From IMG/VR virus record IMGVR_UViG_3300022719_000028, positions 1-59,321 of that record: a stretch of 59,321 nt of DNA, one strand, 5' to 3'. The notes under the pieces are model-generated. The model did no database searches. It saw nothing but the letters and a program-made list of their open reading frames with translations, and had not been told where the DNA came from. Position numbers and translations under genes: made by a program. Within the stretch, counting starts at the first letter, position 1; each line of letters opens with the position of its first letter. Shown piece after piece: positions 3 to 59,321 of the stretch. The DNA is from a virus.

Positions 3-293
3 GGCGGCGGAACCACCACGACCACGACCACGACAACGACAACGACAACCACGACAACAACGACAACGACAACTTCAACTTCAAGCGGCGGCGGAAGCGG
101 AAGCGGAAGCGGCGGCGGAACCACCACGACCACGACCACGACAACGACAAGTTCAACATCGGGCGGCGGCGGAACCACAACAACCACCACAACCACAACA
201 ACAACTTCAACAACATCAGGCGGCGGAAGTTCAAGTTCAAGTTCAACAACGACAAGTTCAACATCAGGCGGCGGATCTCCAACGCTACCATAA
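3..293 (+). CDS. C-terminal end of tail-tip/host-specificity protein (3' part of the ORF that leaves the window at 59321)
   Basis: Frame +3 is open from the first bases (GGG, poly-T, STSS, GGGSGSGSGGG, poly-T ... SPTLP). Stop TAA 291-293. Nt 12-137 are identical to nt 59196-59321 in the same codon phase. Confidence 0.7.
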   Translation, partial: GGGTTTTTTTTTTTTTTTTTTTTTSTSSGGGSGSGSGGGTTTTTTTTTTSSTSGGGGTTTTTTTTTTTSTTSGGGSSSSSSTTTSSTSGGGSPTLP

Positions 294-320: not shown

Positions 321-1823
321 ATGGAGTTTTATTTGAGAGTTACCGGGCAAAAAGGCGATGCAACTTATGTGGGCGAATGCGTTCAAAAGTTTCATGAAAC
401 GAACGGGCTGGAACCGTTGGAAGTTGATGAAGCTTTTTCGAAAGCGATGGACGAATACGGCGAAGTTCGATTGATCATCAGCCGGGAAAGAATCGCGGGC
501 ATGATTACGGTTGCGCATTACGGGCAACCAAAAGAGAACATCGGCCGCATTCGGTTTCTTTGGGTTGATGAAGCGTTTCGCGGTCAAGGCTTGGCGTATA
601 ACGCGATTCTTCACATTATGCGCGGTTATCCCTTCAAAAATTGGGTTGCCGATACGGGGCAAAATGAAGCGGCACGGAACCTATTCAAAAAGCATGGGTT
701 CGAATCGTTTGATGAATCGCCGGATATGATGATTCGGAAGATTGACGAAGATCCGAATTTGACTTGCGTTCATCGCGGCGAACCGGTTGCAAACATCTAT
801 TGCAAACCATGCAAATCGAAAACAGGCCGGGGCCGAATGGTAACGGTTTTCGGTTGCGAACTTCACGAACATTGCACGTTGAACAATGAAATGGTTCGGT
901 ATAACAAAAAGCGTTCAACCGCATGTTCAACTTGCGAAGATCGGCAAGAGGTAAAACGCGATTTTCGTTTAGATATCGGCATGGCTTGTTTCGACGATTA
1001 CGAAGGCGTTTGGTTTACGATTCAGGCGATGCGGCTGGAAGCGCGGGCAAGAAACATTCCGGCCGATATCCGATTCATCATCATTGACAATCATCCGGTT
1101 TCGGCGCATGGGCGGCTTCTGAATGAATTCGCCGATCAATGTGAAGACGTTCGTTATGTGGCTTATACGGATCGGCAAGGAACATCCGGGCCGCGCGATG
1201 AAGTTTTCAAACGGTCGGATGCCGATGCCGTTGTTTGCGTTGATTCGCATATTTTGCTTTGGCCGGGAAGCTTGGCGGCGCTGGTTGAATACTTTGTTGA
1301 AAATCCGGAATCAAAAGATTTGGTTCAAGGCTTATTGCTTTGGGATAATTTGATTCCGGATCATGGCGCAACGCATATGGATCCGGTTTCTTGGGATGCG
1401 AATATGTGGGGGAAGTGGGCGCATGATGAACGCGGGGCGAAGCTTGGCGGCGAACCGTTTGATATTCCGATGCAAGGGTTATGGTTGTTCGGATGCCGGC
1501 GCGAAGCTTGGCTTGGCTTCAACGAATATCAACGCGGCTTCGGAAGTGAAGAAGGATACATTCACGAAAAGTTTCGACAAGCGGGCCGGCGAACTTTGAT
1601 GTTGCCTTCCGTTCGCGGCGTTCATAAATTCGGAAAGCCGGAAGGCGTAAAGTATCCGAACAACTTGCCGGATATTTGCCGGAACTATGTTATCAGTCAT
1701 TACGAACTTGGATTGCCGATGGAACCAATTCAAAAACATTTCGTTGATGAACTGAACTTGCCAATTGATATGTTTGAACTTTTCATTTCGGAAGCCAAAA
1801 GGATCTACAATGCCAAAAGTTAG
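321..1823 (+). CDS. GNAT N-acetyltransferase / Cys-rich linker / GT-A (family 2-like) glycosyltransferase fusion protein
   Basis: N-term RIRFLWVDEAFRGQGLA...LFKKHGF (GNAT motif A). Cys-rich segment CVHR..CKPCKS..CELHEHC..CSTC. C-term IRFIIIDNHP, VVCVDSH (DxH) and GFGSEEGYIHEKFRQAG...P..RGVHKF typical of GT-A enzymes. GAAAGGG RBS upstream. Confidence 0.75.
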   Translation: MEFYLRVTGQKGDATYVGECVQKFHETNGLEPLEVDEAFSKAMDEYGEVRLIISRERIAGMITVAHYGQPKENIGRIRFLWVDEAFRGQGLAYNAILHIMRGYPFKNWVADTGQNEAARNLFKKHGFESFDESPDMMIRKIDEDPNLTCVHRGEPVANIYCKPCKSKTGRGRMVTVFGCELHEHCTLNNEMVRYNKKRSTACSTCEDRQEVKRDFRLDIGMACFDDYEGVWFTIQAMRLEARARNIPADIRFIIIDNHPVSAHGRLLNEFADQCEDVRYVAYTDRQGTSGPRDEVFKRSDADAVVCVDSHILLWPGSLAALVEYFVENPESKDLVQGLLLWDNLIPDHGATHMDPVSWDANMWGKWAHDERGAKLGGEPFDIPMQGLWLFGCRREAWLGFNEYQRGFGSEEGYIHEKFRQAGRRTLMLPSVRGVHKFGKPEGVKYPNNLPDICRNYVISHYELGLPMEPIQKHFVDELNLPIDMFELFISEAKRIYNAKS

Positions 1824-2592
1824 TTGCCTATGCCCAACGTTCAGACGGCCGAAAGCCGTTGCGAATGCGGTTGCCTGTTTTTTGATGCAAGATTTTGAGG
1901 ATTCCGAATTGATCGTTTTCGATGATGAAGGCGATTTCATTCCGGGAGTTATCGCGGGCCGCGTAAAAGTTGTTTCGATTCCGTTTCGGTTTCGTTCGCT
2001 TCCGGAAAAGTTCAATGCGTGCGCCGGGCTGGCAAGCGGCGATTCTGAATTTCTAATCGTTTGGGAAGATGATGATGTGTATCTTCCAACGCATATCAAA
2101 AATCATGTTGACGTTTTGAGTTCAACGGCTGACATTTCAGTTACCGGAAAACTCTACGATGAAAAAGGCGATGCCGGAAACATTCGCGTTCGCGACAATA
2201 CGATTTCGTTTCATTCGGGTTGGGCATACCGGCGCGATTTCTTCGATTTGATTGATGGTTATCGAATCACAAAGGCGCTGAACTTCGATCAACAGACATT
2301 CAACAAATTCATTGAAAACGGCGCGGGGTTGGATTCAACGCCGGAAGCTTCGCATGTTTATACTTGGCTGACTTCCGGTTATACGAACGGATCCGCATTG
2401 CATGGGGAAAAGGCCGATTCGGGCGAATGGTGGGAAGCGGCCGGCCGGCTGGATTACAACGACAAGCCGGAAGGGCCGATCAAACTTGAACCGAAACTTT
2501 CGGAACAATCTGAAACAATCTTTTCCGAGTTGTTCCCGAAACATCTGGAAAAATTTCAGAATAAAAATAAAAAAAGTGAATTCAGTTATTGA
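1810..2592 (+). CDS. family-2 (GT-A) glycosyltransferase
   Basis: VSCLCPTFRRPKAV...SELIVFDDEGD and WEDDDVY (DxD). ATG 1810 is preferred to 1765 because it abuts the end of the upstream gene. Confidence 0.75.
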   Translation: MPKVSCLCPTFRRPKAVANAVACFLMQDFEDSELIVFDDEGDFIPGVIAGRVKVVSIPFRFRSLPEKFNACAGLASGDSEFLIVWEDDDVYLPTHIKNHVDVLSSTADISVTGKLYDEKGDAGNIRVRDNTISFHSGWAYRRDFFDLIDGYRITKALNFDQQTFNKFIENGAGLDSTPEASHVYTWLTSGYTNGSALHGEKADSGEWWEAAGRLDYNDKPEGPIKLEPKLSEQSETIFSELFPKHLEKFQNKNKKSEFSY

Positions 2593-2680
2593 CGGGGCCG
2601 ATTATTGTGATATCATTTAAGCATGAACGGAAGGCAAGGCCGTTCGATATCACTTACTCAATTCTGAAAGGCACGGAACT
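2576..2680 (+). promoter_or_regulatory. early promoter/operator/leader cassette, copy 1
   Basis: Dyad TGAATTCA 2577-2584. -35 TTGACG 2589-2594, 16-nt spacer, TGA-TATCAT extended -10 2608-2616 (contains TGATATCA). Leader hairpin GAACGG/CCGTTC 2625-2645 with loop AAGGCAAGG. GAAAGGCACGGAAC before ATG 2681. Confidence 0.7.
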
Positions 2681-2878
2681 ATGCGTTGGATTATTCAAAG
2701 CGAACCTCACAAAAGCGGAACTCGTTGGGAAGGGAATGTTGTTGTTGTTCGCGGCGGCGGCGACTATCGGATCCCGGTTCAACATTGCGAACTTGTGGAA
2801 ATGAGTTTGCGGCTTCACGGGCGCGTTTTTGGAAGTTACTTGGAAACCGTTCGCGATTTAATGCTTGCGGGATTCTGA
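2681..2878 (+). CDS. hypothetical early protein (65 aa)
   Basis: First ORF after cassette promoter 1. GAAAGG RBS 9 nt upstream. Followed directly by an intrinsic terminator. Confidence 0.6.
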   Translation: MRWIIQSEPHKSGTRWEGNVVVVRGGGDYRIPVQHCELVEMSLRLHGRVFGSYLETVRDLMLAGF

Positions 2879-3955: not shown

Positions 3956-4200
3956 CGAGGCCACCGAAGAAACGATTGGCGGCGGAAAAACTTTTTGAAA
4001 CGTTGGCAACCGGGCCAATATCAATCGACGATATAACAAAAGGCCGTTCGCATTCCGAACCGGAACGGCTTCGCGAGAATTACGATCTTTGGTTTCGTTC
4101 TTGGGTACGCAATCAATTGATTGATTTGATTCCGCAACTATCGAAAGAAGCGGCGGAACGGATCGAAGAAAAACTTTCAGAAAAACAAAAAAAAGAGTGA
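3952..4200 (+). CDS. hypothetical protein (82 aa)
   Basis: ATGA start/stop overlap with the upstream gene. Its stop lies inside the cassette-2 dyad. Confidence 0.5.
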   Translation: MTRPPKKRLAAEKLFETLATGPISIDDITKGRSHSEPERLRENYDLWFRSWVRNQLIDLIPQLSKEAAERIEEKLSEKQKKE

Positions 4201-4298
4201 TATCAGAATTGACCGAACGCCGATAAGTGATATCATATAAACATCGACGGAAGGCAAGGCCGTCAAACATCACTCGAAACTTTGAAAGGCACGGAATT
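4197..4298 (+). promoter_or_regulatory. early promoter/operator/leader cassette, copy 2
   Basis: TGATATCA 4198-4205. -35 TTGACC 4209-4214. TATCAT 4231-4236 (TGATATCA 4228-4235). Hairpin GACGG/CCGTC 4246-4264 with loop AAGGCAAGG. GAAAGGCACGGAAT before ATG 4299. Confidence 0.7.
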
Positions 4299-4535
4299 AT
4301 GACAGTCACAAAAACAGTTGATATCAAAACCGATTTGATTGAAAGCTTGGTTGAGCTTCGCGAGAAGATGGAAGCCGGCAAAACAACGGATGCCGGATAC
4401 ATTCTTTCGGAAGTTCTCGATGCGGTTTCATCATCATCGGTTTCGGTTACTTGCGAACGGGTTGTTCGCGACGATAAGCAACCGGGCGCGTTGCCGGAAG
4501 GCGAAACCAACTACGCGGCATACAACATCGACTGA
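4299..4535 (+). CDS. hypothetical early protein (78 aa)
   Basis: An internal ATG of ORF 4227-4535 is chosen because the upstream part of that ORF is the promoter/leader. Canonical RBS spacing. Terminator follows. Confidence 0.6.
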   Translation: MTVTKTVDIKTDLIESLVELREKMEAGKTTDAGYILSEVLDAVSSSSVSVTCERVVRDDKQPGALPEGETNYAAYNID

Positions 4536-5336: not shown

Positions 5337-6005
5337 ATGGGAAGGCTAAAAAATGGCGCTTGCCGATGCGGGTTATCCTCAAAGATTCATTGCGTTGATT
5401 GCGGCAAGGGAAAGGCCGAAGCGAAAAAACTTTTCGTTCATCTTGGCGAATCCGGGCCGTTCGCTTCCGGGAAATTCATTGACGAACAAACGGAAGCAAT
5501 CGCGTTCAGCTATCCGAGAGGGCCGGCAACGGGCGCAATCTTTTCCGAATGCCGGAATCATCGGTTCGCGCTTTGGCGGATATGGGACAGACGAAAGCCG
5601 TTCGTTTGTTTCATCGGCTTGAATCCCTCGACGGCTGACGAAACCAAAAACGATAATACGGTTTCGCGTTGCGTTCGCTTCGCCGAAGATTTTGGCGGCG
5701 GCGGATTGGTTATGCTGAATGCGTTTTCATACCGGGCAACCGATCCGGAAGAAATGAAGCGGCAAGCCGTTCCGAATTTGATGGAAAATATCGATTGGAT
5801 TTCGGCGTTCGTTGGCTTGGCGGCGCTATCAGTTGCGGCTTGGGGAACGCATGGAACGTTCGCGAATCAAAGCGATTTCATTGCCTATCGAATGCGGAAG
5901 GATCTGCGAATGCTTCATTGTCTCGGAACGAACAAAGACGGAACGCCGAAACATCCGTTGTATTTGAAAGCCGATACGAAACCGGTTTTATGGTGCGAAC
6001 CGTAG
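5337..6005 (+). CDS. DUF1643-family protein with N-terminal Cys-rich extension
   Basis: NHRFALWRIWD..FVCFIGLNPSTADE..NDNTVSRCVRFA..GGLVMLNAFSYRATDP..WGTHG..LHCLGTNKDGTPKHPLYL matches the DUF1643 signature as I remember it. Confidence 0.7.
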   Translation: MGRLKNGACRCGLSSKIHCVDCGKGKAEAKKLFVHLGESGPFASGKFIDEQTEAIAFSYPRGPATGAIFSECRNHRFALWRIWDRRKPFVCFIGLNPSTADETKNDNTVSRCVRFAEDFGGGGLVMLNAFSYRATDPEEMKRQAVPNLMENIDWISAFVGLAALSVAAWGTHGTFANQSDFIAYRMRKDLRMLHCLGTNKDGTPKHPLYLKADTKPVLWCEP

Positions 6006-8174: not shown

Positions 8175-9023
8175 ATGGCAAATCCTCTAAAATGGCACGG
8201 CGGCAAAACGTATCTTGCCGGCGAAATCATCAAACGCTTTCCCGCGCATACGCGCTACGTTGAACCTTACTTCGGCGGCGGGGCCGTTCTCTTTGCAAAG
8301 CCGTTCGAAGGCGTTGCCGAGTATGCGAACGATCTGGATCTTGAGTTGATGAATTTTTGGCGCGTTCTGCAAAACGAATTTCTTGGGCCGTTGTTGATTC
8401 GGCGGTTGAACCTTGAACCGTTTTCAAAGCCGGGGTTCACGGTTGCAAATGCAAAATCGCAATATGCGGATCCGAATTCTTCGCCGGTTTTACGGGCGGC
8501 GAATTTCTTTGTTCGATACCGTCAAAGCCGGCAAGGCTTGGGGAAGGATTTCGCAACGCCAACATCGCGAACGCGGCGCGGAATGAACGAACAAGTTTCG
8601 GCATGGCTTTCGGCGGTTGATGGATTACCGGAAGCGGCGGAACGATTGCGACGGGTTGAAGTTCGCAACGAATCCGCGATTGATTGCATTACCGAACTCG
8701 ATTCGCCGGAAGCTTTGTTCTATCTGGATCCGCCATATCTTCCAGAAACTCGGAAAGCAAAAAAGACATACGGCGAATTTGAAGCAACGGTTGAACATCA
8801 TGAATTGCTTTTGAAAACGTTGGCGGGTATCAAAGGCAAATTCATTCTTTCCGGTTATCCTTCAACGATGTATCGAAAAGCGGCGAAGGCGAACAAATGG
8901 AAATGCGACAAAATAGAAATCGACAACAAAGCAAGTTCGGCGAAGAAAAAAGAAATCAAAACCGAATGCCTTTGGTTTAATTTCAGCCGGCGGGAATTCG
9001 GGAAGGGATTGAAAGCGGAATGA
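8175..9023 (+). CDS. Dam-type (D12 class) N6-adenine DNA methyltransferase
   Basis: KWHGGKTYLAGEI..YVEPYFGGGAVLF (SAM pocket) and FYLDPPY (DPPY at 8727-8738). RBS GAAAGGCTGACACA-ATG. Confidence 0.9.
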   Translation: MANPLKWHGGKTYLAGEIIKRFPAHTRYVEPYFGGGAVLFAKPFEGVAEYANDLDLELMNFWRVLQNEFLGPLLIRRLNLEPFSKPGFTVANAKSQYADPNSSPVLRAANFFVRYRQSRQGLGKDFATPTSRTRRGMNEQVSAWLSAVDGLPEAAERLRRVEVRNESAIDCITELDSPEALFYLDPPYLPETRKAKKTYGEFEATVEHHELLLKTLAGIKGKFILSGYPSTMYRKAAKANKWKCDKIEIDNKASSAKKKEIKTECLWFNFSRREFGKGLKAE

Positions 9024-9778
9024 GAATTTTGATAGTCGGCGCGCCGAAAACAGGAACAACGGCATTGATGGATTCAATCGCCGGAAGTTTAGGTTTCAAA
9101 TGGGAGTTCGAAAAAACCGATTGCGGTTCGGATAATCTTGTGAGAAAAATTCTATTTCATCAATTTGCGGATCGGATGATTGATGAATTTGATCGAATCA
9201 TTTTCACTTGCCGGGATCCTCGCGATAGGTTGATTTCGGCGTTTGTTTATTTCTTGGCGTTCGGGCCGGCAAACATGAAGGGGCCGTTCATCGCGCTTGA
9301 TCTTTTGCAGCGGAAAGAATTCGAACGCGAACTTCCGTTTCATATTTTGTTGCGGGAAGCTTCGCGGCATTGCTTTTTTCATTACTCGTTTTCTGAATTT
9401 GTTGATCGGGATTCGCTGGCGATGATTCGCCGGCATCGCGACAATCCGAAAGTTTGCGTTTTTCATTATCACGATTTAATCAAAACAAACTTTGAAACCG
9501 TTTCGGAGTTGATCGGAAAAAAGATCAAACCGTTTTCCGGGCATTGGTCGCCTATTGCATACCGGGCCGGCGGTTGTGAGTATTGGCGGCGATGGTTCAC
9601 GGAATCGGATCTTGATTATTTTACCGATATCGCGAACGATTGGGCGCGAACTTTTGGATTCGGTTTGGATTGGCGGCTTTCGGATGAAGGCGCGAACGCG
9701 GCGGAAGGATCTGAATGGTTCAAGATCGGCGCGAACAAATGGCGAAAGATAAACGGCGTTCCCGAACTGGAATTTTGA
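9020..9778 (+). CDS. sulfotransferase-family protein
   Basis: GAPKTGTTAL (5'-PSB loop, PKxGTT) and FTCRDPRDRLISAF (3'-PB, RDPxDRxxS). Confidence 0.7.
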   Translation: MRILIVGAPKTGTTALMDSIAGSLGFKWEFEKTDCGSDNLVRKILFHQFADRMIDEFDRIIFTCRDPRDRLISAFVYFLAFGPANMKGPFIALDLLQRKEFERELPFHILLREASRHCFFHYSFSEFVDRDSLAMIRRHRDNPKVCVFHYHDLIKTNFETVSELIGKKIKPFSGHWSPIAYRAGGCEYWRRWFTESDLDYFTDIANDWARTFGFGLDWRLSDEGANAAEGSEWFKIGANKWRKINGVPELEF

Positions 9779-9779: not shown

Positions 9780-10568
9780 ATGAAAAAAGCGGCTTGCGTT
9801 TTCACGATTGTTCAAGATGAAAGTTTTTTCTTGCGGCTTTGGTTTGAACATTATCTTCAACATTTCGACGCAACCGATCTTTTTGTTATCGATCATAATT
9901 CCATCGAACCGGTTCAAGTTCCGGAAGGCGTGAACGTTATTCGGCTGGAATATGAAACATCGTGGGCGCATGATTGGCTTTGCGAGACGGTTGAAAACTT
10001 CAATCGTTTTTTGCTTGGAACTTATGAAACCGTTTTGTTCGCGGAAGCCGATGAATACTATATCGCGAATCCTCTTTTGACTTCGGCCGCAAAGCTTCCG
10101 GAAGTATTGAACGCGGAACATATCGCAAAGAAACCGGTTTTGCGTTCTCAGGGATTTGATATCGTTCAGATGGTCAACGAAGATCCGCCGGTCGATCCTT
10201 CAAAGCCGATGTTGGGGCAACGTCAATTGATGTTCGCTTCCGATGCCTATTGTAAGCCGTGCGCGGTTCGCGTTCCCGTTCGATGGAATTACGGCTTTCA
10301 TACTTTGAGATCTCGCGATATGGTTACGTTCGTTCCCGAATTGGTTCTTTGTCATTTTCATTACTTTGATGAAGACATTTTGAACGAACGGAACGCATTG
10401 CGGCTTGAACGCAAATGGTGCGAAAAAGCTTTATACGATAACCTCGGAAAACAAAACCGAAACAGTTGCACGGAAGTTCGGAAGGAATTTTTGGAATGGA
10501 AAAAAAAGCGAACAATCATGCGGCCGATTCCGGACGAATGGAAATCGTTGATTCCCGCGTTGCGATAG
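9780..10568 (+). CDS. GT-A glycosyltransferase (Glyco_tranf_2_4 / GT92-like)
   Basis: ACVFTIVQDESFFLRLWFEHYLQHFDATDLFVIDHNS and EADEYY motifs. Confidence 0.5.
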   Translation: MKKAACVFTIVQDESFFLRLWFEHYLQHFDATDLFVIDHNSIEPVQVPEGVNVIRLEYETSWAHDWLCETVENFNRFLLGTYETVLFAEADEYYIANPLLTSAAKLPEVLNAEHIAKKPVLRSQGFDIVQMVNEDPPVDPSKPMLGQRQLMFASDAYCKPCAVRVPVRWNYGFHTLRSRDMVTFVPELVLCHFHYFDEDILNERNALRLERKWCEKALYDNLGKQNRNSCTEVRKEFLEWKKKRTIMRPIPDEWKSLIPALR

Positions 10569-11566
10569 TTGTTCCGTCGAATCGCGTTGATGAAATGTGG
10601 AAGTTCAAAAGCGAATGGGAAAGCGAACACGCAACAATCTTTTGCGTTTGGGATAAGGAAACCAAGCCGGGCCGGTTTACAGATTCGAAAACATTCCGTT
10701 CAATTTCGCATCGCGAAATCAAAGAACAATACGGCGAAGTTTCAAAAATCTTTTCAACCAATGACGGCGGGATCCGCATCGCTGGATTCTTGGAAGCGGC
10801 GCGGGCCGGGGCCGAAGTGATTATTGTTTTAGATGATGATACGCGGCCGCATGGTAGCGTTGCCGATTTCATTGAAGGGCATTGCCAAAACTTACGCGGC
10901 GGATTCCCGCGTTGGATTTCGAGCGCTCCGGGAATTCATCAACGCGGCTTGCCGTATCTTCCGGATATAAAAATTCAAAGGCCCGTTCTTTTGTCCGTTG
11001 GATTATGGCAAGGCGTTCCGGATGTTGACACAATCGAAACGTTCGCGGCATTGCGCCGGAAAATATCGCTTCATTACATACCACCAAAGGGAACGCGCAT
11101 CGTTCCGGCCGGGCAACTGGTAACGCTTTCGGGCATGAACTTCGCTTTCCCTGTTGAGTTTCTACCGGCCGCGTTTTGGCCGAAGCAATCGTTGGAAACG
11201 TTTCAAAGATTTGACGACATTTGGGGCGGCTTCTCAATGCAACTAATCATTGAACAGTTCGGCGGAATTGTGACAACGGGCGAACCGTTCGTTTTGCACG
11301 AACGAAGATCCAGCGCATACGCGAACTTGAAAAAAGAAACGCGCGGCATCATTGCGCATGATGAAGTTTCGCAATTGATCGACGGTTTCGAGAGTCAAGA
11401 AACATCGATTGCAAGAACGGCGTTCGCGTTCGTTGAACATCTGAGAAGAAAAGCCGGAATGATGGATTCGGATGTTGCCGAATACGTCAAGCAATGGGCA
11501 ACGGACTTTGAAGCATGGCTTGAACTATGCAAAAAACTTTTCCAAAAACTTTCCAAAAAAGAATGA
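10538..11566 (+). CDS. GT75 / reversibly-glycosylated-polypeptide (RGP)-like protein
   Basis: VAIVVPSNRVDEMWKFKSEWESEH..IFCVWD and IIVLDDDTRP resemble the RGP/UDP-arabinopyranose-mutase family N-terminus and DDD motif. Start 10496 or 10538. Confidence 0.5.
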   Translation: MEIVDSRVAIVVPSNRVDEMWKFKSEWESEHATIFCVWDKETKPGRFTDSKTFRSISHREIKEQYGEVSKIFSTNDGGIRIAGFLEAARAGAEVIIVLDDDTRPHGSVADFIEGHCQNLRGGFPRWISSAPGIHQRGLPYLPDIKIQRPVLLSVGLWQGVPDVDTIETFAALRRKISLHYIPPKGTRIVPAGQLVTLSGMNFAFPVEFLPAAFWPKQSLETFQRFDDIWGGFSMQLIIEQFGGIVTTGEPFVLHERRSSAYANLKKETRGIIAHDEVSQLIDGFESQETSIARTAFAFVEHLRRKAGMMDSDVAEYVKQWATDFEAWLELCKKLFQKLSKKE

Positions 11567-16203: not shown

Positions 16204-17211
16204 ATGATTGATTCAAAGATTGCAGTTGAAGGGCCGAAGGCGCATTCTCCCGAATGGTACGATATCCGGTTTTTCGATCCGGATCGGGAAAGGCCGGTTG
16301 TGATAACGGCAAGCGAATCGGCGGCGGCTTGCGGCGCTTCGCCGTATCAAACCGCGCTTGAACTCTACATGACGAAGCGGCGCGAAATGGAAGCTTGGGA
16401 ACCGGACGACGAACAAAAAGAGCGCATGCGATTCGGTCAACGGATGGAATCGGTTGTTATCGACGAATACAAAAATCAAAACGATTGCGAAGTTGAAACC
16501 GATTTGCCGTTGTATCTTTCAAATCGATTTGAATTCTTGGGCGCAACTCCGGATGCGTTCGCGCGGAAAGATGAAGACGTTTGGGAACTGGAAGCCAAAA
16601 ACTCGAATTGGCGAATGTTCGATCAAAGCGGCGAAGATGAAAACAAATACGGCGAAGCCGGAACGGATCAAGTTCCCGCGTATATGATGTTTCAAGCGCA
16701 ACAACAAATGATCGTTCTTGGTTTGAACCGGGTTGATTTTCCCGTTCTGCAAAACGGGAATCGAATGTTGATTTACCGGGTTGAAGCTTATGAAGCTTTG
16801 CAAAATAAAATCATTGAATGCGGGAAAGAACTTGCCGAACGCATCATCAACGGCGAACCGCCGGATCCGGATTACACGCATGACGGAACCGCGAAATTGC
16901 TTCAAGAAATGTACGGCGTTTCGGTCGGAACCGTTATTGAACTCGATGTTGATGCCGAAGAACTTTGGTTTCGTCAAATTGAGATTGCCGAGAAGATCAA
17001 AGAACTTGAAGCGGAAAAAAAGGCAATCAAAAACAAGATGTTGGATATGATGGGCGATGCTGAGATTGCCCGTTTTCCGGGGCGAAATTTCAAATTGAAG
17101 CGAACCGCTATTGATGATTCGTATTGGACGGAACAAGATGTTCAAAAGATTGTGATCGGAGATATAAAGCGGCGCGGACATATCCGCATCACAAAATCAA
17201 AAGACAAATAA
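16204..17211 (+). CDS. YqaJ / lambda-Exo-type recombination exonuclease
   Basis: ITASESAAACGASPYQTALELYMTKR (YqaJ N-terminal signature). GATPDAF ... WELEAKNS (PD-ExK). Confidence 0.8.
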   Translation: MIDSKIAVEGPKAHSPEWYDIRFFDPDRERPVVITASESAAACGASPYQTALELYMTKRREMEAWEPDDEQKERMRFGQRMESVVIDEYKNQNDCEVETDLPLYLSNRFEFLGATPDAFARKDEDVWELEAKNSNWRMFDQSGEDENKYGEAGTDQVPAYMMFQAQQQMIVLGLNRVDFPVLQNGNRMLIYRVEAYEALQNKIIECGKELAERIINGEPPDPDYTHDGTAKLLQEMYGVSVGTVIELDVDAEELWFRQIEIAEKIKELEAEKKAIKNKMLDMMGDAEIARFPGRNFKLKRTAIDDSYWTEQDVQKIVIGDIKRRGHIRITKSKDK

Positions 17212-17220
17212 ACATTTCTT

Positions 17221-17280
17221 CGCGTTGCCCGGTTCGGATTATCGTTTTCCGTCATTGAAGCCGGGCGGCGCGTTTCTTTA
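17221..17280 (+). terminator. probable intrinsic terminator
   Basis: CGCGTTGCCCGG 17221-17232 / CCGGGCGGCGCG 17261-17272 (two G-U pairs), then TTTCTTT. Confidence 0.45.
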
Positions 17281-17302
17281 CTCGAAAGCGAAAGGCTGAC
17301 AA

Positions 17303-18454
17303 ATGGCAAGCGGAAATCAAATGCTGACACAAGATCAAATCGACGCGCAACGCGGAATGAGTTTGCGCAAATGGTTGAACAAGCCGGAAGTTCTTGAAGA
17401 TCTCGAATCTTCATTGACGGGTTGGATTTCAGCCGAACAATTCAAATCGCAAATTTTAGTTGATATCAATTCGGAAACTCTCGCGCGTTGTTCTCCCGAA
17501 TCAAAGTTTGCGGCGGTTCTCAAATGCGCAACGCTTCAACTGTTACCGTCATTGAATCACGTTGCGTTGATTCCTTCCAAAGTTCGCGAAGACGGCGTTG
17601 TTGTCAAAACCGAAGTTCGCGTTACGGTTCAATGGCAAGGCTATCAAGCTTTGATGCTTCGGCATCCGGACGTTAAAGATGTGAACGCTTACTTGGTTCA
17701 CGAATCGGATTCGTACAAATACGATCAATTAAATAAACGAATCGTTGAACATTCTTTTGATCCGTTGGATCCGCAACGAACTTTCAACAACTTCAATGAC
17801 GTTCGCGGCGGGTATGTAGTTGTTGAGTACAAAGATCCGAACCGGGCTGATAAACATCATTTCGTTACATGCGAAACAATCCGCAAGGCGCGGGGATGCG
17901 CAGAAACCGGCACGATTTGGGAAGCATGGTTTTTCGAAATGTGTATGAAAACTCTCTATCGCAACGCATACGCGCGGCGGGTTGTTCCGATGGATCCAAT
18001 GCTTGCGCGACGAATGGAAGAATTGAACCGGCATGAAGACGAACAACTCGGCAACGATCCGAAGCGAATCATTGATTCAACCGCAACCGCGATTGATCGA
18101 AAGCCGGAAAAACAGAAACCGCAAAGCCGGGCCGCGCAATTGGCTTCGGACGATTCGCCGGAATCTTCGCCGGTGGAACCGGAACCGAAAGCAACGGAAC
18201 CGGAACCGATGAACGAACCGGAACCGGAACCGGAACTTCCAGAAACGCCAACGGATGAACCAAGGCGCGAAACATCGGACGAACGCGGGCATTTCCAACG
18301 GCTGAAAGAAAAGGCCGAATGCGCAACAACCGTGAAAGAAATCGATTCGCTGAATGATGAAGCCGGCGAATTGGTTTCAAGCGGGGAACTGACGAACGGC
18401 GAATTCGGAATTCTGGTACAGTTGTTTTCGGAACTTGCAATGAAACTCGATTGA
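17303..18454 (+). CDS. recT: RecT-family single-strand annealing protein with Pro/Glu-rich C-terminal region
   Basis: SPESKFAAVLKCATLQLLPSLNHVALIP ... VQWQGYQALMLRH ... TLYRNAYARR. Adjacent to the YqaJ exonuclease. Confidence 0.8.
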   Translation: MASGNQMLTQDQIDAQRGMSLRKWLNKPEVLEDLESSLTGWISAEQFKSQILVDINSETLARCSPESKFAAVLKCATLQLLPSLNHVALIPSKVREDGVVVKTEVRVTVQWQGYQALMLRHPDVKDVNAYLVHESDSYKYDQLNKRIVEHSFDPLDPQRTFNNFNDVRGGYVVVEYKDPNRADKHHFVTCETIRKARGCAETGTIWEAWFFEMCMKTLYRNAYARRVVPMDPMLARRMEELNRHEDEQLGNDPKRIIDSTATAIDRKPEKQKPQSRAAQLASDDSPESSPVEPEPKATEPEPMNEPEPEPELPETPTDEPRRETSDERGHFQRLKEKAECATTVKEIDSLNDEAGELVSSGELTNGEFGILVQLFSELAMKLD

Positions 18455-23786: not shown

Positions 23787-24683
23787 GTGTCAGTTGAGCA
23801 AATCATCAAAGAAACGGATGCCGAAGTTTCGCTTTTTGATATGGTTCGGTTTTTATACCGATATGGATATTTCAACGGAATCATTGACGGTTTGAAAAGC
23901 AAATCGTTTGATGATGTTGTGAAGTTCGTTCGGAAGCAAATGCCCGAATTCAAAGAGGGAATCAAACGCTTTCAATCGTTCTACAATTTGACGGTTGATG
24001 CCGATCCGGGGCCGCAAACGCAACGGGCGATGATGGAACCGCGATGCGGTTGCCCGGATATCATACCGGAAGGCGCGGAAGCGGCGGGCCGTTGCCGTTG
24101 GCCGATTGAAAAGATGCAAGGCGTTTCGTATTCCTGCAACTTTGATGAACTCAATATTTCAACGGCCGAAGCAACCAAGATCTTTCAAGATGCGGCGGAA
24201 GCTTGGAACAAAGTTTGTAACATTCAATTGCGCTACGTCAATCAATACGGAAGCGCGAACATCAATGCGGAAACCGCGCGGATTGATTCACGCGGCGGAA
24301 CGTTGGCTTGGTCATATTTGCCTTGTCAGAACTCGGCAACGCAACGGCTTCAACAACGATATGACACGCGGGAAAATTGGAACTATCGGTTTTTGTTGGC
24401 CGTTGCCATTCACGAACTAGGGCATGCGCTCGGCTGGAATCATGCGAACACGCGGGCAAGTATTCTTTGGCCGTCATATCAAAGCAACATTTGGGAACCG
24501 CAAAAATTTGATATCGCGCGGGCCGAAGATACTTACGGCAAGCCGATCATTCCGGAACCGAAGCCGGATCCGAAACCGGATGATCCGAACGTTCCAAGCG
24601 CGGAAGGCATCATCAACTTTAGAATCAACGGGCGAACGTTCCCGATGAAACTTGTTTCTGTTACTGATAAAGGGAGTCTTTGA
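23787..24683 (+). CDS. matrixin (M10, MMP-like) zinc metalloprotease with PG-binding-like prodomain and cysteine switch
   Basis: GTG start after GAAAGGCGCGATT. PGPQTQRAMMEPRCGCPD (cysteine switch, 24039-24059). HELGHALGWNH (HExxHxxGxxH, 24411-24443). SILWPSY at the Met-turn position. Confidence 0.8.
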   Translation: MSVEQIIKETDAEVSLFDMVRFLYRYGYFNGIIDGLKSKSFDDVVKFVRKQMPEFKEGIKRFQSFYNLTVDADPGPQTQRAMMEPRCGCPDIIPEGAEAAGRCRWPIEKMQGVSYSCNFDELNISTAEATKIFQDAAEAWNKVCNIQLRYVNQYGSANINAETARIDSRGGTLAWSYLPCQNSATQRLQQRYDTRENWNYRFLLAVAIHELGHALGWNHANTRASILWPSYQSNIWEPQKFDIARAEDTYGKPIIPEPKPDPKPDDPNVPSAEGIINFRINGRTFPMKLVSVTDKGSL

Positions 24684-24684
24684 A

Positions 24685-25497
24685 ATGCGATGGTTTTACT
24701 ATCATTCGAAATTTGTTTTGGCGGCATCGATCTTTTTGGTTTGTTCCGTTGCATCGGCAACGAACTTCGGAACGCTTCAAGATGTGGACTTCGGCGAATT
24801 GAGTTCGCCGGCAATGGCGAACGTTGACTTCTCGGAACTTTCGTTTGAAGATCTTTCGGCCGATGCGCAACCGACACCGCATGCGGAAGTTCATCGAATT
24901 CTTTCCGAACTGAGATTGAAGCCGGGCGAAACGTTCGTTGATTACGGATGCGGATACGATGCCCGGTTTTGTATCGCGGCGGCTTCGCTTTATGGCGTTG
25001 ACGCAATCGGCGTTGAAATCGATCCGGGCCGGGCGGAATCGGCAAAGCGGCGGGTTGCGGCGCTTGGCTTGTCCGATAAGGTTACGATCATTGAAGGCGA
25101 TGCAACGGCGGTTGATGTGGATGCCGATGTTGGCGTTGCGTATTTATGGCCGGAAACTTTGAAGGCGTTACGGCCGAAACTCGAAAGGCTGGATCGGTTC
25201 GCTTCGGTCAATCATCGCGTTCCCGGTTTGGAAATGAAACCGAACGGCGATGCGTTCGTTTGGACGAAGCCGGAAGATCCGCCGGAACTGCAAACGGTTT
25301 CGATTCCGTTTCCAGAATACGCAAGTTATTCCGCGCCGGTTTGCAACAAAGCGAATTGTTCGATGTGCAATAAAATCCGGGCGAACAACGCGGCAAGGCA
25401 ACGGGCAACCGAACCGGAAAAACAGAAATCCGGCGGGCGTTGGGTGAACTACTATTGCAACGGCCGCGTTTGCCGGCGGGCTTGGGTGGCAAATTAG
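24685..25497 (+). CDS. class I SAM-dependent methyltransferase with N-terminal signal/anchor and Cys-rich C-terminus
   Basis: MRWFYYHSKFVLAASIFLVCSVASA hydrophobic N-terminus. FVDYGCGYDARF..GVEID..IIEGDA SAM motifs. C-terminal CNKANCSMCNK ... YYCNGRVCRR. Confidence 0.6.
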   Translation: MRWFYYHSKFVLAASIFLVCSVASATNFGTLQDVDFGELSSPAMANVDFSELSFEDLSADAQPTPHAEVHRILSELRLKPGETFVDYGCGYDARFCIAAASLYGVDAIGVEIDPGRAESAKRRVAALGLSDKVTIIEGDATAVDVDADVGVAYLWPETLKALRPKLERLDRFASVNHRVPGLEMKPNGDAFVWTKPEDPPELQTVSIPFPEYASYSAPVCNKANCSMCNKIRANNAARQRATEPEKQKSGGRWVNYYCNGRVCRRAWVAN

Positions 25498-33231: not shown

Positions 33232-33401
33232 ACGAAACGACCGAACCAACGGAACCGAAGCTTTCGGTTGAACAGGCGAAGATCCTGCAAGATGCAATGA
33301 AGCGGCTTCGCGATAAACAAGAAAACTTGAAACGAATGAATTCCGGCACGTTGCCGAATTCGCTTGGTAGTTTACTCGGAAAAGGGAAAAAGGCGCAATG
33401 A
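33228..33401 (+). CDS. small hypothetical protein (57 aa), not in the supplied ORF track
   Basis: MNETTEPTEPKLSVEQAKILQDAMKRLRDKQENLKRMNSGTLPNSLGSLLGKGKKAQ. ATGA overlaps at both ends fill the gap exactly. Confidence 0.5.
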   Translation: MNETTEPTEPKLSVEQAKILQDAMKRLRDKQENLKRMNSGTLPNSLGSLLGKGKKAQ

Positions 33402-43458: not shown

Positions 43459-43472
43459 AAATCTGAAAAAAA

Positions 43473-56200: not shown

Positions 56201-56784
56201 ACGCTTTCAATAATTTCATCGGATTGAATCGGCAAGTTGGAAACGTGAACAACAACTTCCAGAATCTTTCGAATCAAATGCAAAACTTCGGGCAAGGTTT
56301 TCAAGGCGGGTTCGGCGGCGGCGCTGGCGGATTCGGCGGGTTCGGCGGGTTCGGCGGCGGCGGCGGGTATGGCGGTTATAACGTAGGAACGGGAAGCGGC
56401 GGCCCGACACAACAACAAATGATGCAAGCTTTGAATTCAACGGCCGGTCAAGTTGCGGCGGCATACGCGGAAATTCAAACGCTTCAAAATGCGTTGTTGT
56501 TCTTGGGGCCGAACTCGGAAAAATCGGAAGATATCGAAGGCCGGATTCAACAGTTGTTGAACCTCATTGCCGAAATCCAAAATCAACCACCGCAATTCGT
56601 TGGGCGTTCGGGCGATATTCCCTTTGAGGATCCCGGACTTGCCGAAGATGGAAGATCCGGGAACAATGGCACGCAAACGGTTACGGTTGAAGCGCCGAAT
56701 CTTACGCGGATGGGAAATCAGGAAGTTCAAGATCTCGCGGCGGCGATTCGCGAACTTGAACGCCGGGAAGGGCAATCGATATGA
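53293..56784 (+). CDS. tail tape measure protein
   Basis: 1163 aa. Ala/Leu-rich helical protein with hydrophobic central segments and a Gly-rich tract (GFGGGAGGFGGFGGFGGGGGYGGY). Canonical position. Confidence 0.85.
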   Translation: MSRKIHELRGILTLNSKGFVNGVKKAVGATKELRQAWGKAGKDIGRAAVRMGAATAGFAGFAVKEFADFESVMVRVRGVTNTLGEQGAKSFNRLAKRAKEMGATTRFTATEAAEAMENLGLAGLEVQEIYDALPGALQLASAAQVDIATAADVAAKTMRSFGLEATDLGRINDTLVGTFTRANTDLRQLAEAIKPVGPVAASLGIELETVTAALAKLSDAGFQGSEAGTALRNILSRFAGAVPEVSAKLRKLGIDIEYTDSGAMDFIATMRNMEAAGLEAGEVMALFGMRGGPGMAALLQVGTDALAEFEAGTRDLEGIAKKLEQAQLDTIAGQFDLLKSAISGVVLEIGERLAPVTRNMMQNFMELTREQGPQMAQTFVDAAEALGKFGMSVITWLRDNKQIVQEFVGALFGIVRWIGEFLAQHPRLMVALAAFKTTGLLGINQAIASTLTALKVTVSFIWTSLIPALGKGAAAFFAMGTAAQAAWAAATLGISLLIVGIIKLIQHFDKVKAYFKTGGGSKIFKPFIDAAIRLRDIVVNAAQKIIAAFTPVATKISTLIRNDLLPVLKRIGASVEVIWGWFKKLGELFAELAGGAFDLMLGAASELAEIGFVALEVALEALVLALTAFAKGLETAINLLQKAVDLAKEAFTLGLAEPERTRELDKQVAALQERLKARAAENAEAEKLAENLNKAAEGQEKLNQKTQEGKTAADELAAQIKRGEVGGGMPGAGGAGGMGGAGGDPAANQDLANKIADAIQAKRDMRLDSEVAGTSELTGFIQQLIQAQGTGALSPDQVVQSLGQYTANIPGATPQASAQLAAGLNQAGQNGNLTPERITQLVQTFLSGIQETETKMQTAKEATKNLGQRFQELRQKFPNIELQELGTKFVNIRKAFMQGKISSEQFGKAMEGLKKQTDEAVKAAKRKEMQERREMMMRVLSGRATQADREAVARMRNARSMEIFDRQLENAFNNFIGLNRQVGNVNNNFQNLSNQMQNFGQGFQGGFGGGAGGFGGFGGFGGGGGYGGYNVGTGSGGPTQQQMMQALNSTAGQVAAAYAEIQTLQNALLFLGPNSEKSEDIEGRIQQLLNLIAEIQNQPPQFVGRSGDIPFEDPGLAEDGRSGNNGTQTVTVEAPNLTRMGNQEVQDLAAAIRELERREGQSI

Positions 56785-59321
56785 CGAGAACAATTTCGGC
56801 GGCATCGCAAACCGAACTCGCAAAACAGAACGGGGCCGAACCGCGATACGTTCTTGAAATCCAATGGGGCGGCGTTACGGGAACGAAGTATTATTCCGAT
56901 GAAGAATTCACGCCAACGGGCGGCGGCTTTACAACCGATGATCGGGTTAATCGTTGGGGCAATCTGAAAGTTCAAGGCAAGCCGGCAAAAGTTGGTTCAA
57001 CAAATTCGTTCAATCTTTCGTTGCGCGATAACGATTTAAGTTTGCGAACGTTGTTCAACTCGAAGCCGGGCGTTCAAGGCAAGATCGCTTACATTCACGT
57101 TTGGTTCAATGGCACGGCTTGGACGGATGCCGTTACCGTTTTCGCCGGGATTATGACTGCGCCGTTTAAGTTCAACGAACGTTCGGTTGATTGGCAAGTT
57201 ACGTTGACGGGCATCGAAAAACATTTTGATCGTTCGATTGGCTTTCCAATTACGCGGCAAGTTTTCCCGGAAGTTGTTTGCGATGATTGCGAAGGAAAAA
57301 TCATTCCTATCGTTTACGGGAATCCGGTCAATCGCGTTCCGGCATGTTTGATCGATAGGCCGGGCAAAGGTTTTTTATCTCAAGTTTTCCGGCATACTGA
57401 CACCGCGCTTTATCTGAGTGATACGGCGGCGAACCTCGGCTTCACTTCCGGAACGTCAATTGATTTGATGATTGGCTATCCGAACAATTATGAAATCGTT
57501 ACCGGAAGCTTTGCCGATGGAAATACAAATGAATTCATCTGGACTTCGCGAAGTAAGATTTTGCAGGCCGGAACATCGGACGGCGATGTAAACGTTGACG
57601 GCTTCACTCATTCGGCCGTTCCGAAAAGCGATTTTTCAAATCCGCATATTTCGCGGGCCGGGCATTTGATTTCTTGGTATCTCGACAACGACAACGGCGG
57701 CGAAGAATGGTTTACGTTTTTCATTACGAAATGGAAAGCGCCGTTCAATATCAACATTGCCGTTCATCCGGAACCGGACATTCCAAGCGGCGGAACCGGG
57801 GCCGGGGATCCTTATCGCGTTTGGGCGGATCCGGGCGTTGTTCCATATTGGCCGGCCGGAACTCCGGTTTTCGAAACAGGCGATTGGAAATACGTTGTCA
57901 ATTTCTTTCCGTCAAAAGAAGTTCAAAAAGTTGAAGCGCGCGGAAGCGAACAAAGCGCAAACGAAAGCGAACAAGTTTATCACGAATACAATTCATCGAC
58001 TTATACCGTCAATTTGAACGATACGGATTACAATACCGATCTTGGACGGGCGGGATCCGATCCGGGAATCACAACGATTTCTGTGAACTCTCCACCGTCA
58101 CAACTCGGATTCAATGAAGAAACGATATGGGTAACACTGGTCGGAACAACCGATGATGAAACCGATACCGGAACGCCGTTGGAAAAAGGCCCGGAAATCA
58201 TCGAACATATTTTAACTTCGGAATGGTTGGGCAACATCGGCGCGGGGTTCATTGATTCGGCGGCATTCGCGGCGGCAACAACGGCCGTTGCCGAAAAAAT
58301 GCAAATGGCAATTTTGGATGAAGTAAACATTCATAAGCTTGCCGGGGATCTCGCGTTTCAAAGTTTCTGTTTATACTTTTGGGATCTTGGTCAAGCTTCG
58401 ATCAAACAAATCAAAAACGATTTGAGCGCGGAAACATCGGAAGCAACTTACACGCAAACCGATAAAACGCACGCAAGCGAATCGCCTTTAGTTCTCTCGC
58501 AACCGTCAATCGAAAACATTTATACCGAACTTCTCGCGACGATGAAGACGGCTATCAGTTCGCCGGAATCGAAATTGTTCCGGCGTTCTCCGGATGCAAT
58601 CGCGGCGTTCGGGAAGCGGCGAAAAACTATTGATCTTTGGGCGTATCAAAACGCCGAATACGTTTCGGATATCGCGGAAGATTGGCTTTCGTATTATCTC
58701 GGATTTCAACAAATGGTTGAATTCACGGCGCGGCTGAATGCGTTGGAACGGCAACCGGGCGACGTTATCACCGCGAACTTTTCCGATGGGAATTCAAACA
58801 ACATCATCAACGAAAAAGTTCGAATCGTTGGCGTTTCTCACACGTTCGGCAAAGCCGGCGAATCAACGGATCGAATCAAACTGGATTGCGAATATGCGCT
58901 TTGGTCATATTCGATTGAAGCCGTTACCTATACGAACGAAGATTGCAACGTTGAAGTTCCGGTTGAAACTTCGGATCCATCAACAACAACAACTTCAAGT
59001 TCAACAGACTCGACAACGACAACGACAACGACAACAACAACAACAACTTCGGAAACCACCGAATCAACAACGACCGAATCAACAACTTCGGGCGAAGAAA
59101 CAACGACCACAACAACGACAACCACCACCACAACAACGACAAGTTCAACATCGGGCGGCGGCGGAACCACAACGACCACAACAACGACAACCACCACCAC
59201 CACGACCACGACCACGACAACGACAACGACAACCACGACAACAACGACAACGACAACTTCAACTTCAAGCGGCGGCGGAAGCGGAAGCGGAAGCGGCGGC
59301 GGAACCACCACGACCACGACC
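56781..59321 (+). CDS. tail-tip / host-specificity protein (gpJ-like), 5' part; continues at 138-293 if the genome is circularised
   Basis: ATGA overlap with the tape measure stop. Open for 847 codons to the last base of the window. N-terminus TELAKQNGAEPRYVLEIQWGG is typical of tail-tip proteins. The C-terminus becomes poly-Thr/Ser/Gly. Confidence 0.7.
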   Translation, partial: MTRTISAASQTELAKQNGAEPRYVLEIQWGGVTGTKYYSDEEFTPTGGGFTTDDRVNRWGNLKVQGKPAKVGSTNSFNLSLRDNDLSLRTLFNSKPGVQGKIAYIHVWFNGTAWTDAVTVFAGIMTAPFKFNERSVDWQVTLTGIEKHFDRSIGFPITRQVFPEVVCDDCEGKIIPIVYGNPVNRVPACLIDRPGKGFLSQVFRHTDTALYLSDTAANLGFTSGTSIDLMIGYPNNYEIVTGSFADGNTNEFIWTSRSKILQAGTSDGDVNVDGFTHSAVPKSDFSNPHISRAGHLISWYLDNDNGGEEWFTFFITKWKAPFNINIAVHPEPDIPSGGTGAGDPYRVWADPGVVPYWPAGTPVFETGDWKYVVNFFPSKEVQKVEARGSEQSANESEQVYHEYNSSTYTVNLNDTDYNTDLGRAGSDPGITTISVNSPPSQLGFNEETIWVTLVGTTDDETDTGTPLEKGPEIIEHILTSEWLGNIGAGFIDSAAFAAATTAVAEKMQMAILDEVNIHKLAGDLAFQSFCLYFWDLGQASIKQIKNDLSAETSEATYTQTDKTHASESPLVLSQPSIENIYTELLATMKTAISSPESKLFRRSPDAIAAFGKRRKTIDLWAYQNAEYVSDIAEDWLSYYLGFQQMVEFTARLNALERQPGDVITANFSDGNSNNIINEKVRIVGVSHTFGKAGESTDRIKLDCEYALWSYSIEAVTYTNEDCNVEVPVETSDPSTTTTSSSTDSTTTTTTTTTTTTSETTESTTTESTTSGEETTTTTTTTTTTTTTSSTSGGGGTTTTTTTTTTTTTTTTTTTTTTTTTTTTTTTSTSSGGGSGSGSGGGTTTTTT
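58978..59321 (+). repeat. low-complexity coding repeat (ACN/TCN/GGN; poly-Thr blocks separated by Ser/Gly linkers), continued at 3-280
   Basis: Runs of ACG ACA ACC ACT codons interrupted by AGC GGC GGC GGA AGC GGA AGC units. Confidence 0.9.
59196..59321. repeat. 126-bp terminal direct repeat (identical to nt 12-137)
   Basis: By-eye alignment of the two window ends. Consistent with a circularised or terminally redundant phage contig broken inside the poly-Thr repeat. Confidence 0.75.

Follow-up and report, generated by a model that had tools for sequence, protein, structure and literature searches.

A phage tail-tip protein with a poly-threonine tail and its adjoining glycosyltransferase genes: a candidate module for protein O-glycosylation

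To our knowledge, mucin-type O-glycosylation counts as a trait of eukaryotes, and the phages for which virion glycosylation has been demonstrated so far are, as far as we know, a few mycobacteriophages; the source study is said to be Freeman et al. 2023. In the serine-rich repeat glycoproteins of Gram-positive bacteria, Ser/Thr-rich repeats are O-glycosylated in the cytoplasm by glycosyltransferases (GTs) encoded in adjacent genes and the protein is then exported; initiation is carried out by a GT-B (GT4) pair, GtfA/GtfB, and export by the accessory Sec system (SecA2/Y2). The glycocin GTs (SunS/ThuS-type GT2 enzymes) are soluble GT-A proteins encoded beside a ribosomal peptide, and they modify one or two specific Cys, Ser or Thr residues in small helical-hairpin bacteriocins. 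As summarized in two reports, mycobacteriophages Che8, Corndog and Myrna encode GTs that add glycans to capsid and tail-tube subunits at their C-termini (PMC12363180, PMC12619734). Here we describe a locus in the uncultured virus recorded in IMG/VR as IMGVR_UViG_3300022719_000028, whose whole 59,321-nucleotide (nt) stretch was analysed and is called the window below. Two GT genes, designated open reading frames (ORFs) A and B, directly follow a gene for a tail-tip protein that ends in a mucin-like run of Thr, Ser and Gly. We consider it probable that these two genes form a phage protein O-glycosylation module whose substrate is the adjacent poly-Thr/Ser tail. We favor this reading because of the invariant DxH, EE and His residues of ORF A, its fold matches to the polypeptide GalNAc-transferases (GT27), the conserved pairing and co-variation of the genes, the fusion partners of the enzyme family, the operon arrangement and the presence of a lone Ser/Thr-rich (S/T-rich) protein in the genome.

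A short note made earlier from the sequence alone had linked the GTs to the poly-Thr tail, and this inferred link is supported by a gene pairing that is kept across unrelated phages and bacteria. Neighborhoods were sampled from the best 80 of at least 446 viral matches to the profile of the DxH GT family, and positions within ±8 genes were scored in a non-redundant set of 66 viral loci; an ORF was called S/T-rich if it held a 30-amino-acid (aa) window with at least 70% Ser+Thr. Almost exclusively, these were the next gene 5' of the GT, on the same strand and typically ending 20-30 nt before it. They occupied position -1 in 26 of the 66 loci, position -2 in 8 and position -3 in 2, compared to 2/630 at the other positions (Fisher p=4e-27 for the enrichment at -1). 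Once antisense-frame picks (L022, L039, L074) had been corrected by hand, about 35 loci were strong and about 8 lay near the threshold. A frame-agnostic distance test found a Thr-rich ORF close upstream of the GT in 41/76 viral loci and elsewhere in 8/76. The corresponding figures for cellular genomes were 23/77 and 7/77, and there the gap to the GT was often 4-10 nt.

The two genes also appeared to co-vary. Relatives whose GTs are 65-67% identical retain the poly-Thr tail, and tail-tip homologs without poly-Thr (L089-L091) are also without a DxH GT. A further homolog that does carry poly-Thr, P0228, is followed by a gene of which only 89 aa are present before the contig ends, and this fragment matched nothing.

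The Thr run is the only feature that the otherwise unrelated partner proteins have in common, as would be expected of an acceptor. In the partners of L008, L009, L076, L071, L113 and P0228, the Thr runs alternate with Cys/Trp mini-modules of about 35 aa (C..C.W.W...W.L...C...C.C.P), a layout that recalls the PTS/CysD layout of mucins. The L008 and L009 partners are encoded just 3' of a tape measure protein (TMP) gene, and the partners in marine loci are small (130-280 aa). In the S/T-rich partners, neither the globular parts nor the Cys/Trp modules were recognized by Pfam or PHROGs. A structural-module context was seen only for the window, L007, L008 and L009, the neighbors in most large marine loci being unannotated. 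The bacterial partners are small proteins in which a conserved twin-arginine leader ('RR..LK...GG...W.KPVV..V..PAHA') precedes the Thr run, which suggests that they are glycosylated in the cytoplasm and then exported by twin-arginine translocation (Tat).

The enzyme encoded by ORF A belongs to a large family. Its residues 215-500 share about 45-50% identity with hundreds of proteins, and a search of 1.84 billion representatives with the family profile gave at least 1,338 clusters (50% identity) at E<=1e-30. In addition to the IMG/VR viral contigs sampled above, the family is present in at least 334 of the 185,579 species genomes, among them Chloroflexota, Actinomycetota, Planctomycetota and several proteobacterial classes. 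Cultured carriers include Oricola indica JL-62, Labrys okinawensis DSM 18385 and Bradyrhizobium diazoefficiens SZCCT0138. On the other hand, neither ORF A nor the marine family member P0030 gave a tblastn match at E<=1e-3 in 50,697 GenBank phage records. The domains fused to the 65 multidomain members of the family are GT25 (16 members), GT10/FucT, an extra GT2, methyltransferases and LicD, as well as PqqD in 12 of the 65. PqqD is the peptide-binding recognition element of pathways for ribosomally made peptides with post-translational modifications (RiPPs), and the Tat leader of the bacterial partners is a possible ligand for the GT-fused PqqD domain. Viral loci without an S/T-rich neighbor include L016, L023, L038, L049, L052, L056; L046, L057, L059, L069, L081, L083, L084; L027, L061 and L086. 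There the gene in front of the GT is portal-like, exonuclease-like ('...FDIGFYEAPG') or polymerase-like (about 870 aa), in what appear to be small podovirus genomes.

We compared the GT-A domain of ORF A with GT27 and GT2 enzymes by both sequence and predicted structure. Six residues (D308, H310, E410, E411, H415 and H435) were invariant in alignments of 50 and of 65 family members. The metal-binding motif, DSH in VVCVDSH, is thus no chance variant, and it is the DxH form that the earlier note had read. When the AlphaFold2 (AF2) model of the domain was searched against the PDB, the 50 best matches were all polypeptide GalNAc-transferases (E 6e-13 to 7e-10), comprising human T2, T4, T7, T10 and T12, Drosophila PGANT9 and Toxoplasma T3, although identity to these structures was only about 16%. 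The family profile aligned with ppGalNAc-T10 in register, placing 'cvDsH' on the metal motif 'LDSH' and 'GfGgEEgYihekfrqaG..P....vHrf' on the Gal/GalNAc-T motif 'WGGEQYEISFKVWMCGG..PCSRVGHIY', with the third metal-ligand His among the aligned residues. The segment of ORF A itself, GFGSEEGYIHEKFRQAG...P....VHKF, fell in register with the T10 motif as well, with low identity and a whole-sequence E of only 3.4e-4. The likeness to the Gal/GalNAc-T motif that had been pointed out from the sequence is thus visible in the profile alignment as well, but a similar motif is present also in GT7 and some GT2 enzymes.

Among PDB sequences, GalNAc-T10 (3.4e-4) was the sole significant match to the profile that ran through both halves of the domain; the match to GalNAc-T7 covered both halves too but was non-significant (E=0.27). 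GT2 enzymes, namely TarP (5.7e-7), chondroitin synthase and heparosan synthase, matched the nucleotide-binding half only. ORF A scored 31.5 bits against PF00535 (cut-off 23.3), a model that does not separate GT2 from GT27, and NCBIfam had no specific model for it, giving sub-threshold PgaC and MshD matches only. The proposal that DxH points to GT27 thus held for the metal triad and the fold; it did not hold for the accessory parts of a GT27 enzyme. A ricin-type (CBM13) lectin domain was not found, as there was no Pfam match and ORF A ends at residue 500 after the catalytic domain, nor did a hydropathy scan of ORF A reveal the type II membrane anchor of GT27. We therefore describe the DxH enzyme as GT27-like and not as a GT27 member, since it lacks a lectin domain and a membrane anchor, shares only about 16% identity with GT27 and, by sequence, scores about equally well with GT2 enzymes over the nucleotide-binding half.

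No transmembrane (TM)-like segment was found anywhere in ORF A: the peak 19-aa hydropathy was 1.65 and fell on the core beta-strand VVCVDSH. The protein is therefore predicted to be soluble and cytoplasmic. Its N-terminal GNAT domain scored above the Pfam cut-off (34.8 bits versus 20.7 for PF00583) and has an acetyl coenzyme A motif, RGQGLA, at residues 87-92. Between the two enzymatic domains lies a linker with seven Cys that possibly binds zinc. The GNAT/linker/GT-A architecture proposed from the sequence was thus borne out. The linker is conserved, at 72-74%, in P0002 and P0003 only, and the full fusion is confined to the lineage of P0002, P0003 and L007.

The proposed substrate is a tail-tip protein whose gene lies directly 3' of the TMP gene. 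Its globular core comprises residues 1-735, and the AF2 model of this core (pLDDT 82, pTM 0.79) found its best PDB fold matches in T5 pb3 (7zhj_b, 7e-19), 8hqz_A (2e-18) and lambda gpJ (8k35_A, 1e-12); the tail-tip proteins of DT57C, T1 and Chi matched as well (overall E 7e-19 to 2e-9). These matches to tail-tip and baseplate-hub proteins indicate that the label "tail tip", given earlier without a structural model, is correct. We found 10 homologs of the core, with variable C-termini, and none in cultured-phage records. At L089 (12209-14692), one of the loci without poly-Thr and without a DxH GT, a cluster encoding GT9 (heptosyltransferase-like), Methyltransf_21 and cytidylyltransferase proteins about 3.5 kb 3' of the tail tip appears to be another kind of glycan-related cassette in a comparable genomic location.

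Translation across the circular junction gave the poly-Thr blocks with Ser/Gly linkers and the stop codon that had been described. The tail is longer than the 150 or so codons first estimated, at about 200: the last 199 residues comprise 121 Thr, 38 Ser, 31 Gly and 9 others. No terminal globular domain follows this low-complexity tail in the translation. It is the sole S/T-rich stretch in the genome, reaching 100% S/T per 30-aa window compared to a maximum of 37% in other ORFs, and such a run is far beyond chance. Thr is encoded in it by ACA (53), ACG (31), ACC (29) and ACT (8), in proportions unlike the rest of the genome. Because all four codons are used, the run appears to be maintained at the protein level and not to be a pure trinucleotide slippage tract.

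ORF B encodes a DxD-type GT2 with the motif WEDDD at 2065-2076, and it likely starts at ATG 1810 rather than TTG 1765. Its best PDB sequence match was a PglI-type glucosyltransferase (9jma, 1.3e-6), and its nearest characterized relatives are glycan-extending enzymes such as PglI, EpsE and HpsN. No TM segment was found in ORF B. Homologs of ORF B lie 3' of DxH GTs in nine other viral loci, so the two-GT module recurs.

The arrangement of the genes is that of an operon. The tail-tip stop and ORF A lie just 27 nt apart, no terminator was found in this interval, and ORFs A and B overlap by 14 nt, as they do in L001 and L006. That both GT genes directly follow the tail-tip gene, as the earlier note had it, was confirmed by their coordinates and by an independent contig in which the order does not depend on the circular junction. 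The linear IMG/VR contig L007 encodes, contiguously, TMP, a 917-aa poly-Thr tail tip (core 83% identical), the GNAT-GT fusion and the GT2. In the relatives L001 and L006, the contigs end inside poly-Thr immediately 5' of the GT gene. Downstream, a promoter element begins exactly at the ORF B stop, and the two GT genes therefore appear to close the late structural transcription unit. This element of about 115 nt is present in three copies (2570-2685, 4190-4305 and 43470-43585; about 80% column identity), each with GTGATATCA half-sites around TTGACN-16-TATCAT, a GC hairpin (ACGGAAGGCAAGGCCGT), a ribosome-binding site and an ATG. The copies probably represent a regulated promoter/leader, repeated so as to open three transcription units.

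These observations suggest the following mechanism. A tail-tip protein of the pb3/gpJ type, evident from sequence, fold and gene order, would be made late in infection with a disordered Thr/Ser/Gly C-terminus of about 200 residues. The soluble, co-transcribed GT-A enzyme of ORF A would bind a nucleotide sugar through its D308-x-H310...H435 metal site and, as its motifs, fold and gene pairing suggest, place the first sugar on Thr/Ser hydroxyls in the host cytoplasm, much as ppGalNAc-transferases do on mucins. ORF B would lengthen the glycan. It could be speculated that the fused GNAT domain acetylates a sugar or the glycan, and that a sulfotransferase, a reversibly glycosylated polypeptide (RGP)-like GT and methyltransferases from other parts of the genome tailor the glycan further. 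The product would be three extended, protease-resistant "bottle-brush" filaments with dense glycans and no terminal globular domain. By analogy with gpJ and pb3, in which the C-terminus points away from the tail, they would be located at the distal tip of the tail. There they would take the place of the receptor-binding domain of lambda gpJ and may serve in adhesion to the host surface, in shielding from proteases, or in both.

Several points weigh against this mechanism. The evidence for it consists of sequence, predicted structure and gene context. About one third of the viral DxH-GT loci are without an S/T-rich neighbor; adjacency is thus not obligatory, and in these loci the substrate, if it is a protein, is encoded elsewhere. 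The comparison of residues 215-500 with GT27 and GT2 families, which the earlier note had recommended, gave a divided answer: structure favored GT27 throughout the top 50, while by sequence the N-terminal half gave higher scores with GT2 enzymes for wall teichoic acid and polysaccharides (TarP, 5.7e-7) than with GT27 (3.4e-4). Generic GT2 matches in the viral library, which lay at 1e-10 to 1e-9, gave an indirect estimate of how far GT27 stands ahead of generic GT-A folds, namely by roughly 2-3 orders of magnitude in E-value. AF2 confidence was low for the GNAT half and for the linker because their alignment is shallow, with two homologs only. Finally, the assembly closes inside the poly-Thr repeat. 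Positions 1-29 of the window are identical to 59293-59321, and the same 29-mer occurs a third time at 109-137, within the repeat; the repeat number is therefore uncertain by one in-frame 108-nt block, and the tail may be mis-assembled in length by one or more such blocks.

One alternative is that ORFs A and B are moron-type genes that close the late operon and alter the host envelope (O-antigen, exopolysaccharide or a teichoic-type polymer), leading to superinfection exclusion or receptor masking, and that their position beside poly-Thr is incidental. Morons are frequent 3' of tail genes, ORF B resembles the polysaccharide GT2 enzymes PglI, EpsE and HpsN, and there were weak matches to GtrB-like O-antigen conversion proteins (PHROG E=0.006) and to PgaC (E=0.001). 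However, neither GT has a TM segment, and GtrA/GtrC-type partners were not found among the window ORFs scanned. Incidental adjacency would also not be expected to leave an S/T-rich neighbor in place across unrelated phages and bacteria, and the PqqD fusions indicate a peptide acceptor. We consider this alternative unlikely.

Another possibility, which we judge to be quite unlikely, is that poly-Thr serves as a flexible spacer that carries no glycans and that the GTs act on other virion proteins, such as the capsid or tail tube, or on an unrelated target. As summarized in the two reports, the only experimental precedent does concern capsid and tail-tube proteins, modified at their C-termini (PMC12363180, PMC12619734), and the DxH-GT loci that have no S/T-rich neighbor would also be accommodated. 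On the other hand, no other protein of the window offers an S/T-rich segment, and a spacer leaves unexplained why the positional enrichment is specific to Thr-rich ORFs. Glycosylation of phage DNA to evade restriction through hypermodified bases, a common role of phage GTs (PMC12619734), is very improbable here, as the ORFs scanned yielded nothing beyond Dam, RecT and YqaJ and included no hydroxymethylase or other base-hypermodification gene, the GT genes lie within the late structural unit, and the family occurs on bacterial chromosomes beside secreted Thr-rich proteins.

A broader proposal goes beyond the module that we favor for this phage. The DxH enzymes might be a sister group of the eukaryotic polypeptide HexNAc-transferases (GT27/GT60) that extends across prokaryotes and phages, and they might serve a general "bacterial mucin" system in which an adjacent initiating GT densely O-glycosylates, in the cytoplasm, the Thr runs of phage tail-tip or fiber proteins and of Tat-exported bacterial surface proteins. 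In the phage described here, the glycosylated poly-Thr filament, lacking a globular receptor-binding domain, would then itself act as the organelle of host adhesion. We put this forward tentatively and regard it as doubtful in its entirety; if it were true, the origin of mucin-type O-glycosylation would be pushed back to bacteria and their viruses.

The significance of these data reaches beyond one phage, as the DxH family is large, uncharacterized and encoded beside presumptive Thr-rich substrates. If the proposed module is real, it would represent a widespread phage route to glycan-coated tail-tip filaments or fibers, with effects on host recognition, particle stability and shielding from immune factors and proteases. 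It would also provide a simple, soluble and genetically paired enzyme-substrate system for mucin-like glycoproteins in bacteria, and it would bear on the evolutionary origin of GT27. The occurrence of the family in cultured bacteria makes the idea directly testable.

The window is a complete, circularly closed tailed-phage genome (59,321 nt including the 29-nt terminal overlap) with about 89 genes, all on the + strand; the features discussed here are collected in Table 1. Its late module also holds a head morphogenesis protein and an Ig-like tail-tube protein. One of the two candidate methyltransferases is a Methyltransf_24 protein, the family that is fused to DxH GTs in other members. Other genes of the window encode a matrixin-type M10 peptidase with PG_binding_1 (23787-24683), an unusual candidate lysin; a YqaJ exonuclease and RecT recombination pair (16204-18454); a Dam methyltransferase (8175-9023); and a DUF1643 protein (5337-6005). 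The named homologs of ORF B come solely from Planctomycetaceae metagenome-assembled genomes (MAGs), and a Gemmataceae MAG (L113) holds a phage-type pair of partner and GT; together these are a weak hint that the host is possibly a member of the Planctomycetota.

Table 1. Coordinates of the features of the window and of partner genes in other loci.
Feature	Position	Strand	Basis or remark
ORF A, GNAT/Cys-rich linker/DxH GT-A fusion, 500 aa	321..1823	+	Pfam PF00583, PF00535
GNAT domain, residues ~1-140	321..740	+	PF00583 E=2e-8 over residues 52-127; PF13508
Cys-rich linker (Cys 149, 161, 164, 179, 185, 202, 205)	765..935	+	sequence
DxH GT-A domain, residues 215-500	963..1820	+	PF00535 E=2e-7; AF2 pLDDT >90
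DSH metal-binding motif (D308, H310)	1242..1250, in VVCVDSH 1230-1250	+	alignment with GalNAc-T10
Gal/GalNAc-T-like motif GFGSEEGYIHEKFRQAG...P....VH(435)KFG, with third metal ligand	1530..1640; H435 at 1623-1625	+	alignment
ORF B, DxD-type GT2, 260 aa	1810..2592	+	PF00535 E=3e-8, 34.2 bits
Putative promoter/leader element of the next transcription unit	2570..2685	+	TTGACG-16-TATCAT at 2589-2616
Tail-tip (baseplate hub, pb3/gpJ-like) gene	56781..59321 + 30..293, stop 291-293	+	934 aa once overlap removed
Poly-Thr/Ser/Gly C-terminal tail, mucin-like (residues 736 onward)	58986..59321 then to 293	+	translation, composition
Sulfotransferase, candidate glycan tailoring	9020..9778	+	PF00685 E=8.7e-8
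RGP/GT75-like protein, candidate glycosylation enzyme	10466..11566	+	PF03214 E=1.6e-20
Two S-adenosylmethionine (SAM) methyltransferases, candidate glycan tailoring	24652-25497, 33398-34039	+	one is Methyltransf_24
Large terminase	35530-37305	+	late module
Portal	39485-40993	+	late module
Major head protein	46453-48156	+	late module
TMP, 1,163 aa	53293-56784	+	late module
Cys/Trp-module partners	L008 8064-9968, L009 7023-9497, L076 7108-9981, L071 8686-9534, L113 3518-5980, P0228 C-terminus		sequence
Bacterial Tat-leader partners	L105 4528-4908, L154 2174-2590, L116 4549-5178, L155 4511-4900, L136 4345-5169, L119 4702-5259		5' of DxH-GT

In the literature searched, we found no description of the DxH family, of its pairing with Thr-rich genes, of phage GT27-like enzymes, of PqqD-GT RiPPs or of mucin-like phage tails. 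The closest known system is that of the mycobacteriophages, which likewise combine phage-encoded GTs with a C-terminal extension of a structural protein as the target (here a proposed one), which is modified in the cytoplasm of the host either before virion assembly or in its course. The enzyme appears to differ from the GTs of the Che8 gp110/Corndog gp38 type, as ORF A had no match in the GenBank phage records, which are expected to include those phages. The proposed target is a mucin-like tail of about 200 residues on the tail tip instead of the short C-termini of capsid and tail-tube subunits, the GT genes adjoin the proposed substrate gene, and the phage is uncultured.

Mucin initiation by the GT27 enzymes of eukaryotes is the nearest analogue in mechanism. 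Compared to GT27, the DxH enzyme has the same GT-A fold and DxH...H triad and a segment that falls in register with the Gal/GalNAc-T motif, and its proposed acceptors are likewise Thr/Ser-rich, disordered runs punctuated by Pro or Gly. In contrast to GT27, ORF A has no ricin-type lectin domain, no type II anchor and no Golgi in which to act, being a soluble and cytoplasmic protein by prediction, and the DxH family is fused to GNAT, PqqD, GT25 and other domains that are not known as partners in GT27.

The serine-rich repeat system differs in that its initiating enzymes are of the GT-B type whereas both GTs here are GT-A; GtfA/GtfB and SecA2/SecY2 genes were not found among the window ORFs scanned. 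The bacterial DxH partners carry twin-arginine leaders in place of an accessory Sec route, and the phage version needs no export at all. Glycocin and other RiPP systems resemble this one in having a soluble GT-A enzyme encoded beside a peptide gene and, through the PqqD fusions, in the recognition element; on the other hand, what is proposed to be glycosylated here is a long homopolymeric run of Thr, and the proteins that carry such runs reach 2,200 aa.

Finally, the tail-tip protein is like lambda gpJ and T5 pb3 in its core fold, in its position after the TMP gene and in a C-terminus that is distal, host-facing and variable, but the C-terminal receptor-binding domain or fiber of those proteins is replaced by a low-complexity Thr/Ser/Gly tail. 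Taken with the predicted structures, these comparisons suggest that the locus represents a new form of phage virion glycosylation, which differs from the known one in its proposed mucin-like tail-tip target, in an enzyme with no detectable homolog in the mycobacteriophage genomes and in a GT gene that adjoins the gene of its proposed substrate.

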